Source of the DNA: a virus
DNA length: 64,000 bases
Strand: one strand, 5' to 3'
IMG/VR virus record: IMGVR_UViG_2511231141_000002
Both the position numbers and the translations under genes were made by a program. Shown here in pieces: positions 30,236 through 54,861 of this stretch. Under the pieces are notes generated by a model that saw only the letters and a program-made list of their open reading frames with translations, did no database searches and was not told the origin of the DNA. Each line of letters begins with the position of its first letter. Within the stretch, counting starts at the first letter, position 1.

Positions 30236-31689
30236 CAGTCACAACGATGCCAATAATCTGTGAACGAAGAACTAGTAGTGAGACTGCTGGATGCGGACAT
30301 CACATTCCCGCTGCCGTCATACATATAGATTTGATTATTGGCCAATGCACCGATTGGATTCCAATATCCGTATATGCTGTATGTCTGCGCATTTGTCCAC
30401 GGGTTCTGTTGGTAATTCGCCAGCGCGGAAAGTGAACCATTCACCTTCGGTCGCTCATCGATCCACTCGGCCGTCGTTCCATCGTAGTAATTGGAGTTCA
30501 GATTGACCAAAACCGACTGGGACGTGCCAGTGGTATTGTCAGCCACATAAAAATCCGTTTGACCAGTGGAAGATTCATACGAGACGTACACGTAGATGTT
30601 ATCTCCAGGGTTTACTGTGACGTTTGGCAACAAGATTTCATTCACACCTGATCCGTCTTTTCCGAGGTATTCGTACCATGCGTAAGGCGAATTATAGTTC
30701 AATTCGGTTCCTGCCTGTATTAATCCTCCCGAATTTATTCCCCCTAGACCGGCCCACGCTGATTCATAGGCTGGCGAACATGTGGTGGGGCCCATTGTGG
30801 GTTGGGTATAGCTCCCCTGAACAGCTACCCATTCATTGTAACTAGAATAGTTGTAGTAACCAGACCAGTTACTTGCTGCGAATACACCTTCAGAAATATT
30901 CTCGGCAGTCCCTGTATACGGAATGAGACGATGTGAAATATTTGTCATTACCACCTTGGGCGGAAGCATCCGTTTCCAATGACTCATTTCCTGCTCCCAC
31001 TGTTGAAGGTTCTGGGGATCAGAAGGCCGTGGCGGGAACCCATATTCTCGAAGTTGTGCATCCGTTGCCGTCAGCGGATTAAATCCTTTGGGTGGTACCG
31101 GGAATACATTCTTGACACCATTGATGTAATATATGTACTCCTGACCTCCGTCAGGAAGTGTCTGTACCGAGGAAGCAGTCAATGCCTGGGTTGAAATCGT
31201 AGAGACCTTCGAATGCGTTGCCGCTGAAGCTACGGTTGGTTCCGCGTCAGAAGTGTTCTCGGTAATCCCTTTATACGGAACGAGACGATGTGAAATATTA
31301 TACGGAATGAGACGATGCGAAATATTTGTCATTACCACCTTGGGCGGAAGCATCCGTTTCCAATGACTCATTTCCTGCTCCCACTGTTGAAGGTTCTGGG
31401 GATCAGAAGGCCGTGGCGGGAACCCATATTCTCGAAGTTGTGCATCCGTTGCCGTCAGCGGATTAAATCCTTTGGGTGGTACCGGGAATACATTCTTGAC
31501 ACCATTGATGTAATATATGTACTCCTGACCTCCGTCAGGAAGTGTCTGTACCGAGGAAGCAGTCAATGCCTGGGTTGAAATCGTAGAGACCTTCGAATGC
31601 GTTGCCGCTGAAGCTACGGTTGGTTCCGCCATCGGAATTGCTGCGAAGATCGCCAAAAAACCGCAAAGAGAAATTTTACGCACATCCAT
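30235..31689 (-). CDS. Secreted glutamic peptidase family G1 (PepG1-like) with a duplicated prodomain
   Basis: SNWSGY, SAWAGLGG, LIQAGTE, AWYEY, TAEWIDERP motifs; signal peptide. Confidence 0.9.
   Translation of the reverse strand: MDVRKISLCGFLAIFAAIPMAEPTVASAATHSKVSTISTQALTASSVQTLPDGGQEYIYYINGVKNVFPVPPKGFNPLTATDAQLREYGFPPRPSDPQNLQQWEQEMSHWKRMLPPKVVMTNISHRLIPYNISHRLVPYKGITENTSDAEPTVASAATHSKVSTISTQALTASSVQTLPDGGQEYIYYINGVKNVFPVPPKGFNPLTATDAQLREYGFPPRPSDPQNLQQWEQEMSHWKRMLPPKVVMTNISHRLIPYTGTAENISEGVFAASNWSGYYNYSSYNEWVAVQGSYTQPTMGPTTCSPAYESAWAGLGGINSGGLIQAGTELNYNSPYAWYEYLGKDGSGVNEILLPNVTVNPGDNIYVYVSYESSTGQTDFYVADNTTGTSQSVLVNLNSNYYDGTTAEWIDERPKVNGSLSALANYQQNPWTNAQTYSIYGYWNPIGALANNQIYMYDGSGNVMSASSSLTTSSSFTDYWHRCD
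30915..31629. repeat. 331-bp near-identical direct repeat, 384-bp offset
   Basis: 30915-31245 vs 31299-31629; plus a 27-bp mini-duplication at 31272-31298. Confidence 0.92.
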
Positions 31690-50387: not shown

Positions 50388-50621
50388 TCATGATGCATCC
50401 TCCAATTTGGTGGCTTGGGCTAGGCGCTTAAGGGCTTGGGTGATCTCCACCTTCATCGGCAGCAGCCACTTCTCTCGGAATTCAAGCCACTCTTCTTCGC
50501 TGTCGAACCCGAGCCTCGGGTCGATGATCGGCACGATGTGGTACATACCGTTTTCCCATCTCAATGTGGCTCCGCCACATCGGGAAGCATTTAGCGTCCA
50601 ACCCAGCGTGTCATCACTCAC
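50388..50621 (-). CDS. Hypothetical protein (frame stays open upstream through WDPRPDL)
   Basis: ORF track; true start uncertain. Confidence 0.55.
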   Translation of the reverse strand: MSDDTLGWTLNASRCGGATLRWENGMYHIVPIIDPRLGFDSEEEWLEFREKWLLPMKVEITQALKRLAQATKLEDAS

Positions 50622-50793
50622 GACCTGAGTCAGTAGGACTTCCCACAGTCTGTGGTCGCTGACGAGATCCGGTCGCGGGTCCCAACGCCAATCATGTGCG
50701 CATGAAGTGATGCTCTCACCACCTGTTATTCGTCGAAATGCGTGTGAATCCTACCACTAAATCTTCCAGCCAGTACGACACATTGTGATGTCC

Positions 50794-50919
50794 GCTGTTT
50801 TCACCCGCTACCACGGCGGGCAGCGCACAGCGGACGAAGCGGCCATGCCTTGCCATAGCTTACCTTACCACACCACGCCTCGCCTGGCCGAACCGCGCCC
50901 AGCCTAGCCTCGCCATGCC
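50794..50919 (-). ncRNA. GGY-NN pentamer RNA C (16 units + structured 3' tail)
   Basis: 15/16 units GGY; NN = AT GA TA TG GC TC CA GA GT GT AA AA AT AA AT CG. Confidence 0.85.
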
Positions 50920-51382
50920 ACGTAAGGAGTTAGGGCAGCGTGAGTTCTCACCCGATGGCGTCCCGACAGGCGCGAACGTGTCTGAAGCGCGGAACACTCG
51001 CTTTTGCCGTGTCCCACGATTTTGCGCCTGCCGAACGCCACGGTCGGGCGGTGCCTCCGCCGCCCGGCGCAGCGCACGAACTGCTTGGGACAACAGCGCG
51101 CATCAGGCGCGTAATGATGCAGCTCGCGCGCCGGGCACGGCGGCGGAGAAAAGGGTTCTGGGATTATTCAGTTGCCAAGGTCCGCTCTGACGCGGCACAT
51201 CGCCTCATGAGTGTTCATATCGTGCTGTCGTGACGGCGATACGACCCGCGCCGGGAACGCGCGCTCGGCGTCCCTGGTGTCATTGGTGTGGGCGTCGTCA
51301 GACACCCGAGAGGGTTCGCCCCTCCACTCTGTACCGAAGACCTTCGGTACAGGGCGCAAGGGCGAGGGCCTTGCGCAAGCCA

Positions 51383-52009
51383 TTAAAACGGCTTCCAGTA
51401 TGGTTTGATGTCAGGGAACCGCGTCCTGCCGTGTTGGCCGCTGTTCATCAAATCCGCCAAACTCGGACCATCGGTCGGAATCCCAATAGCGTCATACCCC
51501 GCCATGAGATTCGCGCTGACGATGAGCAGGCGCTCAATCATCAGGTCAGACAGGCGATCCTGCAGACGGTGAGCGGCATCGATCAGAAGCTTCGCCTGCT
51601 CTGTCCTCACGTTAAGCTCCATGACTTTCAGTTGTTTATCCGCTACCTCGCACTGCTCGCGACGTTCAGGCGTCTCGTACTTGCCGGTCTTGCGGATGGA
51701 GGGCAAGACTTCGTGGGTGACCCAGCGCTTAAAGGCCTTCGCCTCAGGCTTGCGGCTGCCCAAGATCAGTGAATACAAACCGGCTTCGTTGATGATGGTC
51801 ATGTTCTGTTGACCGCCGGGGGTGTGAATTGAACTCACACCCTTTTCATCCTCGTCGATCCGCTCCAAGGCTTTACGATCCAACTCAAGAATCACAAGCA
51901 CGTCAGCAGCCACCCACCACGGTTCATCGTTAATCATGACGACTCGGATTCGATGGCCTTTGAACATCCATTCCATCGTTTGGTTTCCGCTCTTGTCCAC
52001 AGGTTGCAT
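51383..52009 (-). CDS. BRO-N domain antirepressor
   Basis: RIRVVMINDEPWWVAADV...INEAGLYSLI..SRKPEAKAFKRWVTHEVLPSIRKTG. Confidence 0.93.
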   Translation of the reverse strand: MQPVDKSGNQTMEWMFKGHRIRVVMINDEPWWVAADVLVILELDRKALERIDEDEKGVSSIHTPGGQQNMTIINEAGLYSLILGSRKPEAKAFKRWVTHEVLPSIRKTGKYETPERREQCEVADKQLKVMELNVRTEQAKLLIDAAHRLQDRLSDLMIERLLIVSANLMAGYDAIGIPTDGPSLADLMNSGQHGRTRFPDIKPYWKPF

Positions 52010-52096
52010 GGTATCCCTCCTGAAGATCTTGCGATTAGAAGTTGCCATTTCGGTCTGGGCCGAAAAGATTCGACCCATGGCGCAAGGGCGAAACGC

Positions 52097-52303
52097 TCAA
52101 CGCACCAACCTCAGTCGTTCTACGGCTCTGTAGATCCCCCATCCCGCCAGAATGAACGGATATAACGCTATGAGCACAAGCGCCGCGAAGAACACTCTGA
52201 CAAACCACATCAAATCTTCGTTGTCCCAGAGTTTGATCAGAACAAGAGCCAAGACGGCACCTAATAGATCTCCTCCAATAACCGCCAGCAGATATTCCGC
52301 CAT
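52097..52303 (-). CDS. Small 2-TM membrane protein
   Basis: Hydrophobic ORF. Confidence 0.6.
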   Translation of the reverse strand: MAEYLLAVIGGDLLGAVLALVLIKLWDNEDLMWFVRVFFAALVLIALYPFILAGWGIYRAVERLRLVR

Positions 52304-52319
52304 AGATGACCACCAAATC

Positions 52320-52655
52320 CTACACCGGAAGCTGCAACCCCCGACACCCGATCACCCTGCCCTCTTCGTCCAGGATGGCCTCCGCAGGGCTAAACACATC
52401 CGTTCGCCCCGCCCTCGCCGCAGCCTGCGCCACCAGCGTCGAGGCGACGTACACCGTGTCCTCCTCCGGATCCGGCAACTCGACAACTTCACCAAACTCC
52501 GTGCTGAAGACCGGGATACCATCAAGCACATCAATTTGCTTCGATGTGCTCGCCACCCGTGCCACGATGCCAGAAGGCGGGATTCGTGCGATGGTAGTTC
52601 CATCCGAGCCGATGAATGTGAGTTCGTGTGGTGTCAAATTGACAATCCGATGCAT
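52320..52655 (-). CDS. NLTPH-family protein (possible Crn4-like ring nuclease)
   Basis: NLTPH...VARV...LP.P...YVASTLVA...R.D...GRVIGC; AAGGAGG RBS; function from recall only. Confidence 0.5.
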   Translation of the reverse strand: MHRIVNLTPHELTFIGSDGTTIARIPPSGIVARVASTSKQIDVLDGIPVFSTEFGEVVELPDPEEDTVYVASTLVAQAAARAGRTDVFSPAEAILDEEGRVIGCRGLQLPV

Positions 52656-52742
52656 GCTATTGTCCTCCTTGGTCCGATTTCTGTCGCATCCTCAAATTCC
52701 TAATCAACCTCGTAGGAGCCTTCTTTTCGCGCCCCTCCGCGC

Positions 52743-52827
52743 GGCGCTCAAAGTACGGACTCGAACCGCAAGTCTCCACGGGGTGATCAGTCCCGTGTCA
52801 ACCGTGCCGCCTGCACCTTTGAGCGCC
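52743..52827 (-). ncRNA. tRNA-like cloverleaf element (not a canonical tRNA)
   Basis: 11-bp acceptor-like stem, GTGC/GCAC arm, CACGGG/CCCGTG arm, TGCGG-TTCGAGT-CCGTA T-arm. Confidence 0.55.
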
Positions 52828-52908
52828 CGGCGCAGGGGCGCGCCCTGCGCGCTCTCTAGGCGTTGACAAAGGGAGGTTCACCCACTGTAACAGTGGGCTA
52901 TGGTGCCG

Positions 52909-53140
52909 GCTGTTTTCACCCGCTACCACGGCGGGCAGCGCACAACCGGCGAAGCGACCATGCCTTGCCATAGCCTGCCGAACCTGACCACGCCTCAGCC
53001 CGCCTCACCAAGCCATTCCAGACCCTACCCCACCGAGGCTTGCCGTGCCACACCCGGCCATGAACGTTGGAGCGGTTCTTCGCCGCCCCGACCCGCCTCC
53101 GAGACACCTCGGAGACACGTCGCGGAAGCGAAGCTTCCGC
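52909..53140 (-). ncRNA. GGY-NN pentamer RNA B (leader + 21 units at 52955-53059 + tail)
   Basis: 17/21 units GGY; NN = CG GT AC AA TC GG AG CT AT TT GA GG GA GT CA TC AG AT AA AT CG. Confidence 0.87.
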
Positions 53141-53149
53141 TCAAGGCAC

Positions 53150-53770
53150 TCACTCCACGTCGTCCTCCAACACCTTATACTCCACCACCTGAAATCTTCC
53201 AAACATTGGCCTATAATCTCCAATTCCAACCAACCTTCCCGCTTGAACCAGTAGGTCATAGAGCAGTTCCGGACTGATATATTCTGGAAGAAGACACTCA
53301 ACTTGAAATTCAACTTCCCACCCTGGTAACAGCGCTGGACGAACCCTGGTAACTCCCGCTCGTTGAACTAAAACACGGCGTCTATCAAGAAAGTCTGGTT
53401 GTGCTTTTCCCATTGAAGCCAGCCACGGCGTCACGATAAATGCAGCTTTAGATAAATCTGACATTGACTTTCTTGGCGAGCGAGGATCCTGCTTGAACTT
53501 CGCCGCGTTCACGAGCGCCTGATGCAGGTAGACACCGGGAATGCAGATTTCGCCGTCTTCGTTCCGGTAAAGGTACGCTTCCCAGTTGTCCGTCTTCTTC
53601 ATCGCGCTGCCCTTGGCGGCTTGCGCCTTGGCTTCAACATCCTCACAGTCCCATCGATGGAATAATATAGGCGTCGATCCCTTCAGTCGCACAGCCGCCC
53701 GATACGGCGTCGCGAAACGAACATTGTCTCCGTCAACCGTGTAGCCTATAATGGTATTGGCAACCGACAT
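53150..53770 (-). CDS. RAMP/Cas7-like RNA-binding protein (Vipr-like)
   Basis: VRLKGSTPILFH first strand, CIPGVYLHQAL (cf. RAMP YIPGSSLKG), C-terminal G-rich loop GRLVGIGDYRPMFGRF; flanked by GGY-NN tracts. Confidence 0.8.
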   Translation of the reverse strand: MSVANTIIGYTVDGDNVRFATPYRAAVRLKGSTPILFHRWDCEDVEAKAQAAKGSAMKKTDNWEAYLYRNEDGEICIPGVYLHQALVNAAKFKQDPRSPRKSMSDLSKAAFIVTPWLASMGKAQPDFLDRRRVLVQRAGVTRVRPALLPGWEVEFQVECLLPEYISPELLYDLLVQAGRLVGIGDYRPMFGRFQVVEYKVLEDDVE

Positions 53771-53831
53771 TCGTCTTTCACCCTTTCGTTTAGGATGGAG
53801 CGGCGCGAACGCCGCTCTTTTGTTGTTCCCG

Positions 53832-54030
53832 GCTAATTTCAGACACTACCTCGGTGTCCAGCGCTCAACCGGGGAAGCGGCCATGCCACGCTCTACCACG
53901 CCGAACCATGCCACACCATGCCCCGCCTCGCCTGGCCAGGCCACGGCAAGCCATACTTTTGGAGCGACCTTCGCCGCCCCACGCCACCCCCGAAGGATTC
54001 GGAAGTGGTGTGCGGAGGCGAACCCTCCGC
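53832..54030 (-). ncRNA. GGY-NN pentamer RNA A (leader + 15 units at 53878-53952 + tail)
   Basis: 13/15 units GGY; NN = TT GT CT CA GA GG AT GT AT TC GT AG GT AT CG. Confidence 0.87.
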
Positions 54031-54033
54031 TGT

Positions 54034-54861
54034 TCATGCTGTTTGTCCGGCTGTTTCGCCTTGTTGTGTCTCTTCTGTTGACGAACCATTGGAGTTCTCC
54101 ACGTTGACTTGCAGATAATCTTCAATCCCCACCGTGATCGATTTGTGCCGTGCTTCAAGCTCTTTTCCTATCGACACGACGCGGTACTTTTCCGCTGGAG
54201 TCAATTCCCGAAGTATCTTCGGAGGTTGCAATTGACTCCATACGAACGCGCCATTTCGTTTTGTCTCCAGCGAAAGTTCGATTTCATAACTGCTCACCAG
54301 TTGACCACGAAAGCGAAGCGCGCTGACAAATTGATCCCACGCCCGATGACTCGAAGGTGGCAGTCCGAGAATCGCAGGCACTTGCGAATTTTCTTCCAGA
54401 AGATAGATTCGTCGAACGGTTTTGCATGCTTTCCCTCTTCCACCATTCGGATCACTACCAAACTGATCAAACGGACAACCCTGACACTTTCGATATGAAA
54501 TGAGTCCATCGTCCGCAACGTAGCGTCCGATCTTGCCATCGTGACTCGTGCAGAGCGGCGGCGCACTTTCACCTTCGTTCTGAGGCGCAAACAGCACTCG
54601 ACTTGTGTGAAAAAACGGGATTCTGACTCTTAATTTCTGAATAATTTCTCCAGTTGCCTCGTTTTGGAAGGCGGCCGCTTGCGCAACGATCCGATATCTT
54701 ACGGGAAGAATTTCGGCGTTCTCTTCCAGTTGCGCGGCATCTTGCATGGTCTCAGCGTATTGTTCGAGTGAGATTCCTTGAGCTTCGAGCTCCTGCGCCT
54801 GTTCGACCGTCAACCCGAGCTTCTGAAGCAGATTCGGATCGTACTGTGCCAGTGTGGTCAT
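54034..54861 (-). CDS. Phage protein, putative Zn-binding ssDNA-binding/annealing factor
   Basis: C.S.DG...CQGCPFDQFGS...GKACK..RRIY...LPPSS; follows the exonuclease. Confidence 0.6.
   Translation of the reverse strand: MTTLAQYDPNLLQKLGLTVEQAQELEAQGISLEQYAETMQDAAQLEENAEILPVRYRIVAQAAAFQNEATGEIIQKLRVRIPFFHTSRVLFAPQNEGESAPPLCTSHDGKIGRYVADDGLISYRKCQGCPFDQFGSDPNGGRGKACKTVRRIYLLEENSQVPAILGLPPSSHRAWDQFVSALRFRGQLVSSYEIELSLETKRNGAFVWSQLQPPKILRELTPAEKYRVVSIGKELEARHKSITVGIEDYLQVNVENSNGSSTEETQQGETAGQTA

Follow-up and report, generated by a model that had tools for sequence, protein, structure and literature searches.

Constant, covarying 3' tails of three probable VIPR guide RNAs in an Alicyclobacillus prophage

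VIPR is a CRISPR-like gene-silencing system of phages that was first described in 2026 (bioRxiv 10.64898/2026.04.26.720920). A phage-encoded RAMP protein, Vipr, polymerizes on guide RNAs (vrRNAs) made of GGY/NN repeats, and the repeats end in an invariable 3' tail with conserved secondary structure, which is a pseudoknot in the SUSP1 clade (10.64898/2026.04.26.720920). [quoted passage not shown] The structure of a VIPR tail has so far been described only for the clade of coliphage SUSP1. What, then, are the three structured elements that terminate three pentamer-repeat tracts in an Alicyclobacillus prophage, IMG/VR virus record IMGVR_UViG_2511231141_000002? We analyzed a stretch of 64,000 nucleotides (nt) of this record, hereafter the window, in which the locus is read on the minus strand, and the three elements are very probably the constant 3' tails of three VIPR guide RNAs.

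A pentamer scan of the window finds three minus-strand tracts of N-GG-Y-N pentamers, 14-20 units each, and all three run into one 59-nt frame: GGNCG, CTTC, 9 nt, GCGCT, a hairpin, GAAA, 9 nt and a 4-nt flank. The tails, placed by coordinates, covariance model score and RNAfold, and their parts are as follows.

53824-53882, minus strand: tail A, whole (covariance model 84.6 bits)
53878-53882, 53874-53877, 53865-53873 and 53860-53864, minus strand: tail A, GGCCG, CTTC, 5' strand of helix P1 and GCGCT
53854-53859 with 53841-53846, 53847-53853 and 53837-53840, minus strand: tail A, helix P2, its loop CGAGGTA and GAAA
53828-53836 and 53824-53827, minus strand: tail A, 3' strand of P1 and flank AACA
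52901-52959, minus strand: tail B, whole (covariance model 94.6 bits)
52955-52959, 52951-52954, 52942-52950 and 52937-52941, minus strand: tail B, GGTCG, CTTC, 5' strand of P1 and GCGCT
52931-52936 with 52918-52923, 52924-52930 and 52914-52917, minus strand: tail B, P2, its loop CGTGGTA and GAAA
52905-52913 and 52901-52904, minus strand: tail B, 3' strand of P1 and flank ACCA
50786-50844, minus strand: tail C, whole (covariance model 90.5 bits)
50840-50844, 50836-50839, 50827-50835 and 50822-50826, minus strand: tail C, GGCCG, CTTC, 5' strand of P1 and GCGCT
50816-50821 with 50803-50808, 50809-50815 and 50799-50802, minus strand: tail C, P2, its loop CGTGGTA and GAAA
50790-50798 and 50786-50789, minus strand: tail C, 3' strand of P1 and flank ATCA

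The outer helix, P1, joins the 9 nt that follow CTTC to the 9 nt that follow GAAA, which are reverse complements if G-U pairs are allowed, and is 9-10 bp long; its strands are CCCGGTTGA and TTAGCCGGG in tail A, GCCGGTTGT and ACAGCCGGC in tail B, and GTCCGCTGT and ACAGCGGAC in tail C. The inner helix, P2, has the core GACAC/GTGTC in A and CCCGC/GCGGG in B and C. It is 5-7 bp overall, with G-U pairs lengthening the window copies to 6-7 bp, and it closes a loop of the form C-N-N-G-G-U-A, while an asymmetric internal loop (5' GCGC-N versus 3' AAA) separates the two helices. RNAfold returns the identical two-helix fold for all three window tails, at -21.9 to -28.7 kcal/mol and z scores of -1.9 to -2.7. 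An earlier reading made from the sequence alone had each tract end in GGCAT-GGYCG-CTTC, 15 nt (...GCGCTG), a hairpin and TGAAAWYAGC with equal spacing, and this is what all three tracts have on the minus strand. That reading overlooked the outer helix: the first 9 nt of its presumed 15-nt spacer are the 5' strand of P1, which pairs with 9 nt beginning inside the terminal WYAGC, and its left boundary at 50794 cuts P1 of tail C, which extends to 50786. Its description of hairpin stems that differ completely yet still pair is right as to the pairing, kept around CGAGGTA or CGTGGTA, but not as to the difference, since A and B/C differ at only three of the five pairs. In Rfam, only a tRNA-Thr elsewhere reaches its gathering score, and the best match within 50600-54100 is no better than E 0.69. 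Most B-, C- and upstream-type tails have ACCA after P1, resembling a discriminator base plus CCA after an acceptor stem, and A-type tails have AACA in its place. A loop-to-flank pseudoknot (UGGU with ACCA) was considered and rejected, since changes in the loop are not matched by changes in the flank and ACCA is missing from A-type tails.

The case for a functional RNA is carried by covariation among relatives. The Vipr-like protein encoded in the window led to A. sendaiensis (93% identity) and A. fructus (86%), each with three RNAs bearing the same tail, and a covariance model (R1) was built from these nine tails. It finds 23 tail copies, 22 of them distinct, at E values of 1e-7 to 3e-19, from five Alicyclobacillaceae genomes and one metagenome contig; the additions are two tails in a second locus at about 1.80 Mb of the prophage's own genome, those of a third Alicyclobacillus genome, five that form an array in a different genus of this family, and two on the metagenome contig. 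Across the 22 distinct tails, standard pairs fill 99.1% of the helix cells, 14 of the 20 pairs have changed on both sides, up to six different pair types occur at one position, and the column pairs with the highest mutual information are the helix pairs. A MAFFT alignment made before any model gave 97.9% pairing, with 11 of 16 pairs changed on both sides. For the 22 distinct tails, not one shuffle in 500 attains the observed values, a statistic that overstates independence because the tails are close kin. When the 3' partners were slid by 1-3 columns, pairing fell to 27-54%; these slid controls preserve relatedness, and neither they nor the number of pair types is affected by kinship. G-U pairs occupy about 40 of the 423 helix cells and would be A-C mismatches if the other strand were used, which identifies the minus strand as the functional RNA strand.

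The same data bear on the view that the tails are features of the DNA (decaying microsatellite flanks, recombination sites or origin iterons, for example) and seem to pair only because they were duplicated. In its favour, the three copies are paralogues, and there has been recombination between guide and tail modules. However, compensatory changes at 14 of the 20 pairs in 22 distinct copies, the failure of the slid controls, frequent G-U pairs that work on one strand only, and a cognate RNA-binding RAMP protein encoded alongside make this explanation, already disfavoured, highly improbable. Covariation, slid controls and one-strand G-U pairs thus uphold the earlier argument for a functional RNA over microsatellite decay, and the covariance model that had been proposed as its check was built and recovered tails that covary.

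What identifies these RNAs as VIPR guides is the protein encoded between tracts A and B. The 206-amino acid protein matches the 'SUSP1 Vipr protein' (PDB 36pp_D) with an E value of 1.6e-7 as a single sequence and 5e-11 as an 11-sequence profile covering residues 5-187 of 202. An AlphaFold2 model of this protein (mean predicted local distance difference test score 72.6) has type VII Cas7 and Csm3 as its top Foldseek matches, with probability 1.00. The SUSP1 Vipr match together with the Cas7-like fold points to a VIPR system in which the tails are vrRNA 3' tails. Readings of the pentamers as sigma-54 promoters or as a TRAP-like attenuator were dropped after the Vipr homology emerged. The gene and the repeat tracts are placed as follows.

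53879-53958, minus strand: vrRNA A repeat tract, 14 variable GGY-NN units plus constant last units (pentamer scan; units in register)
53150-53770, minus strand: vipr gene, 206-amino acid Cas7-like RAMP protein, between tracts A and B (PDB 36pp_D match; AlphaFold2/Foldseek)
52956-53060, minus strand: vrRNA B repeat tract, 20 units plus constant last unit (pentamer scan; target match)
50841-50920, minus strand: vrRNA C repeat tract, 15 units plus constant last unit (pentamer scan; units in register)

vrRNA B directly follows vipr. Over the 22 distinct guides, conformity to GGY is 77-100% per position and NN is hypervariable, directly beside the constant tail. By the published mechanism, each vrRNA would be read from the minus strand, its GGY-NN pentamers would be bound by Vipr at one pentamer per protomer, and its NN dinucleotides would read double-stranded DNA with one base skipped per unit. 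The compact tail module of P1, internal loop and P2, directly after the last repeat, would cap the guide RNA, a cap or anchor role carried over from SUSP1. The earlier proposal that the pentamer RNAs are guides gains the backing of an adjoining Vipr homologue. Taken as a whole that interpretation is partly supported; its functional RNA scaffold is right, yet the VIPR literature already explains it.

The tail class accompanies Vipr proteins of 67-100% identity. It was not found at 31 loci whose Vipr is 48-58% identical (8 viral, 23 metagenome) and in phage DSL-LC04, all of which have GGY-NN tracts with other tails, and it was not found among about 140 other genomes of the class that were searched. 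A degenerate tail pattern gave 82 matches in IMG/VR; the 80 loci searched with the model were all rejected as chance. The tail class tracks the Vipr clade, as an orthogonal loading handle would. Four tails of the class lie in the Alicyclobacillus genome G002 (L018, L021, L028), where no Vipr is detectable by the window protein query, and these may be solo vrRNAs; at L018:2313-2389 of this genome there is a vrRNA that has lost nearly all of its repeat units. In the other genus, five head-to-tail vrRNAs about 165-190 nt apart lie directly upstream of a 67%-identical Vipr (G027:C1:2461150-2461951, L019). In this array the tails diverge most in the two RNAs closest to vipr, one of which has a different P2 loop.

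Gene order raises the question of whether the tails could be cis-regulatory leaders of downstream genes, tail A for instance acting in vipr translation or read-through. Each RNA in the window is directly upstream of a minus-strand open reading frame (ORF), tail A is 53 nt before the vipr start codon, and after it come another hairpin and the vipr ribosome-binding site. Yet the same tail precedes unrelated genes, the five copies of the head-to-tail array have no intervening genes, there is no U-run terminator, and the fold is always fused to a GGY-NN tract, all of which makes a leader function very unlikely.

The repeats next to the tail behave differently from the rest of the guide. In the 22 distinct guides the NN entropy is 1.18, 2.11 and 2.52 bits at units -1, -2 and -3 from the tail, and 2.9-3.7 bits from unit -4 onward. 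Unit -1 is AT or GT, unit -2 is AA in 10 guides, and more guides of the family end in GGCAA-GGCAT (AA-AT) than in any other pair of units; in five Felixounavirus tails, too, the last unit is invariably AT. The sequence-only reading had noted correctly that B and C have their last units GCTAT GGCAA GGCAT in common and had taken this as a sign that new guides arise by duplication or recombination of the tail. Since the three tail-proximal units are semi-constant family-wide, most of the B/C sharing reflects family constraint and is no private mark of B and C, and the case it makes for tail duplication is weak, so that the proposal as a whole is partly supported. The recombination itself does occur: locus L010 of A. 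fructus carries, downstream of vipr, the leader and 12 of the 14 NN units of window guide A on a B-type tail. The chromosome of the prophage's own host has a second VIPR locus (G000:C1:1799520-1802596, L011) with a 91%-identical Vipr, a vrRNA B identical to the window's, and a vrRNA A that is a different guide with a tail one base different; it probably marks a second, related prophage.

Do these guides have targets? Matches were scored by the published 1-nt-skip (xNN) rule, with 150 trials in which the unit order was shuffled. vrRNA B matches its own genome at G000 352491-352550, minus strand, at 30 of 40 positions, shuffled maxima not exceeding 28, and its first 16 units, at the 5' end, match at 28 of 32, shuffled maxima not exceeding 24. 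Skip lengths of 0, 2 and 3 give no comparable match except the vrRNA genes themselves, and the first 12 units with at most 3 mismatches find this site only among 45 family genomes. The joint-best site of vrRNA A, at 20 of 28 positions, is 186 nt from the B site in the same small ORF and frame, and is suggestive only; at both sites the skipped base falls at the codon wobble position. For vrRNA C and the second-locus vrRNA A, no target above background was found in their own genome. The target ORF (352473-352823, minus strand) is the first gene of a Rep_trans/FtsK operon, and genes for an XRE regulator and a tyrosine integrase adjoin this operon, which identifies the target as a resident integrative element. 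The element (G000:C1:~349600-355200, L032 6616-12189) encodes FtsK/SpoIIIE, a Rep_trans-like initiator, the XRE regulator and the tyrosine integrase. A target in a co-resident element fits the published role of VIPR in mobile-element conflicts. In the B match the last four units are at chance level (2/8), and at the A site the last two match at 1/4. On the evidence of these one or two targets, the units next to the tail seem to belong to the constant region.

Several points, besides the close kinship of the 22 tails, weigh against the VIPR reading of the elements or against a pseudoknot in their tails. With equal-sized patterns, vrRNAs A (at most 3 mismatches) and C have no match in the 45 family genomes. 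No homologue of vap1 was recognized, the neighbouring 111- and 275-amino acid proteins being without similarity to Felixounavirus vap1, and a scan of the minus strand near the RNAs turned up neither a sigma-70-like promoter nor an intrinsic terminator. The candidate pseudoknot would pair a near-invariant CGC after GGN with GCG directly 3' of the P1 5' strand; drawn in the SUSP1 topology, P1 is the second stem, and P2 and the AAA lie within the third, A-rich loop. All 66 CGC/GCG cells can pair, but they include just one double change, to U-A, and one U-G, so that the pseudoknot depends on three pairs that hardly vary and on a single compensatory event. Sterically, a loop of 3 nt has little room to cross a helix of 9-10 bp. 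An H-type pseudoknot of SUSP1 topology in the Alicyclobacillus tail is accordingly possible but somewhat less than probable.

Without a minus-strand promoter or terminator, the vrRNAs would need cutting from a longer early transcript, and the tail could then be mainly a processing or stability signal, whose helices and ACCA define host RNase cuts and block 3' exonucleases while Vipr contacts the GGY repeats only. This is in keeping with the missing promoters and terminators, with the ACCA after P1 in most tails, and with the processing of published VIPR arrays by hammerhead ribozymes (10.64898/2026.04.26.720920). It is also in keeping with the region 3' of tail B (52729-52900, minus strand), a covarying hairpin followed by a conserved tRNA-like cloverleaf, which has the makings of a typical RNase P/Z substrate. 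On a long acceptor-like stem the cloverleaf bears arms that resemble the D and anticodon arms, together with a T-arm that has GGTTCGAGTCC. Four relatives keep hairpin and cloverleaf after their B-type tails, and 15 pairs show changes in both partners. Neither ARAGORN nor Rfam calls the cloverleaf a tRNA, and its role may be to direct the processing of vrRNA B by RNase P/Z. On the other side, the tail class tracks the Vipr clade, the mature SUSP1 RNA retains its tail, which is visible in the complex (10.64898/2026.04.26.720927), and A-type tails, which have neither ACCA nor the tRNA-like element, still keep P1 and P2. A tail that serves mainly in processing is therefore improbable, although processing and scaffold roles are compatible and not exclusive.

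At the other end of the RNAs, the leaders of A and B (53960-54035 and 53062-53135, minus strand) have a similar set of hairpins ending GGGGCG-GCGAAxxx-CGCTCC. The hairpins are kept in relatives, in A. fructus the leader has moved together with guide A, and they may mark a 5' processing site or transcript start. A kissing interaction of the leader hairpin loop (GCGAAG) with CTTC of the tail was rejected by eye, the loops of the relatives being GCGAAC or GCGAAT. The neighbours of the locus are phage early and replication genes, encoding an exonuclease, a Bro-N anti-repressor, a primase and an SNF2 helicase; the 111- and 275-amino acid proteins have no Pfam family. Elsewhere in the window, Tandem Repeats Finder reports 1.9 copies, 99% identical, of a 384-bp unit that contains a shorter repeat of 27 bp (30915-31629).

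The three elements, read as vrRNA tails, belong to an already published RNA class, that of the 667 published VIPR systems, here from a new host group and with a fold of their own. It presents a second, sequence-unrelated tail class with strong covariation support, in prophages of thermo-acidophilic Firmicutes, and leaves the published VIPR picture standing. Orthogonal handles of this kind would be useful if several VIPR systems run side by side, and the suggestion that tail-adjacent repeats are constant and not programmable matters for target prediction. A natural pairing is also supplied, of a prophage vrRNA with the replication and transfer operon of a co-resident integrative element.

How does the Alicyclobacillus tail compare with the tails already described? 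As reference for the SUSP1 clade we used Felixounavirus VpaE1, whose Vipr is about 28% identical and which has five tails. In these, a 4-bp stem (S1) directly follows the last GG, and 6 loop nt pair with a 3' segment (S2) across an A-rich linker; 98% of cells pair and 8 of 10 pairs have changed on both sides. The likeness to these type II VIPR tails is as follows. In both groups an invariable structured module stands directly after the last GG of a GGY-NN tract, the phage locus has a Vipr RAMP gene of about 200 codons beside the RNAs, several vrRNAs per locus have one tail, there is little departure from AU or RU in the last variable unit, and helices covary despite sequence drift, with an A-rich strand before the 3' pairing segment. 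However, there is no sequence similarity, model R1 scoring at most 7.8 bits (E 0.73) on VpaE1 with filters off. The Alicyclobacillus tail is about 59 nt long as against about 40, its long-range helix is 9-10 bp as against 6, it has the extra C-N-N-G-G-U-A hairpin, and no vap1 homologue was recognized after vipr. Whereas the SUSP1 pseudoknot has been seen by cryo-EM, the short first stem of the Alicyclobacillus tail (CGC/GCG, 3 bp) is a candidate.

In the light of these differences, the Alicyclobacillaceae tail could be viewed as a separate, orthogonal vrRNA handle that combines a SUSP1-topology pseudoknot with an inserted hairpin (a possible second-factor site), 3-4 constant anchor repeats that do not read DNA, and maturation by host tRNA-processing enzymes, at which the ACCA flank hints, as does the tRNA-like module on the 3' side of B-type tails; this combination is put forward tentatively and is, taken together, rather unlikely. 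The tails without detectable Vipr in G002 resemble the solo (orphan) vrRNAs that Felix O1-like phages and F5 satellites carry (bioRxiv 10.64898/2026.10.15.759431) and agree with the published idea that a guide can use the Vipr of another element through a tail common to both, unlike the three RNAs of the window, which are not solo since the window encodes Vipr. The arrangement is also reminiscent of the repeat-derived CRISPR crRNA handle bound by Cas5, Cas6 or Cas7, in which a constant structured end on a variable guide is used by a RAMP-family complex for loading and register, and the Vipr fold here is Cas7/Csm3-like. Unlike CRISPR loci, the locus has no CRISPR array, spacers or cas genes, its pentamer code is non-contiguous, and its tail is not a palindromic repeat.

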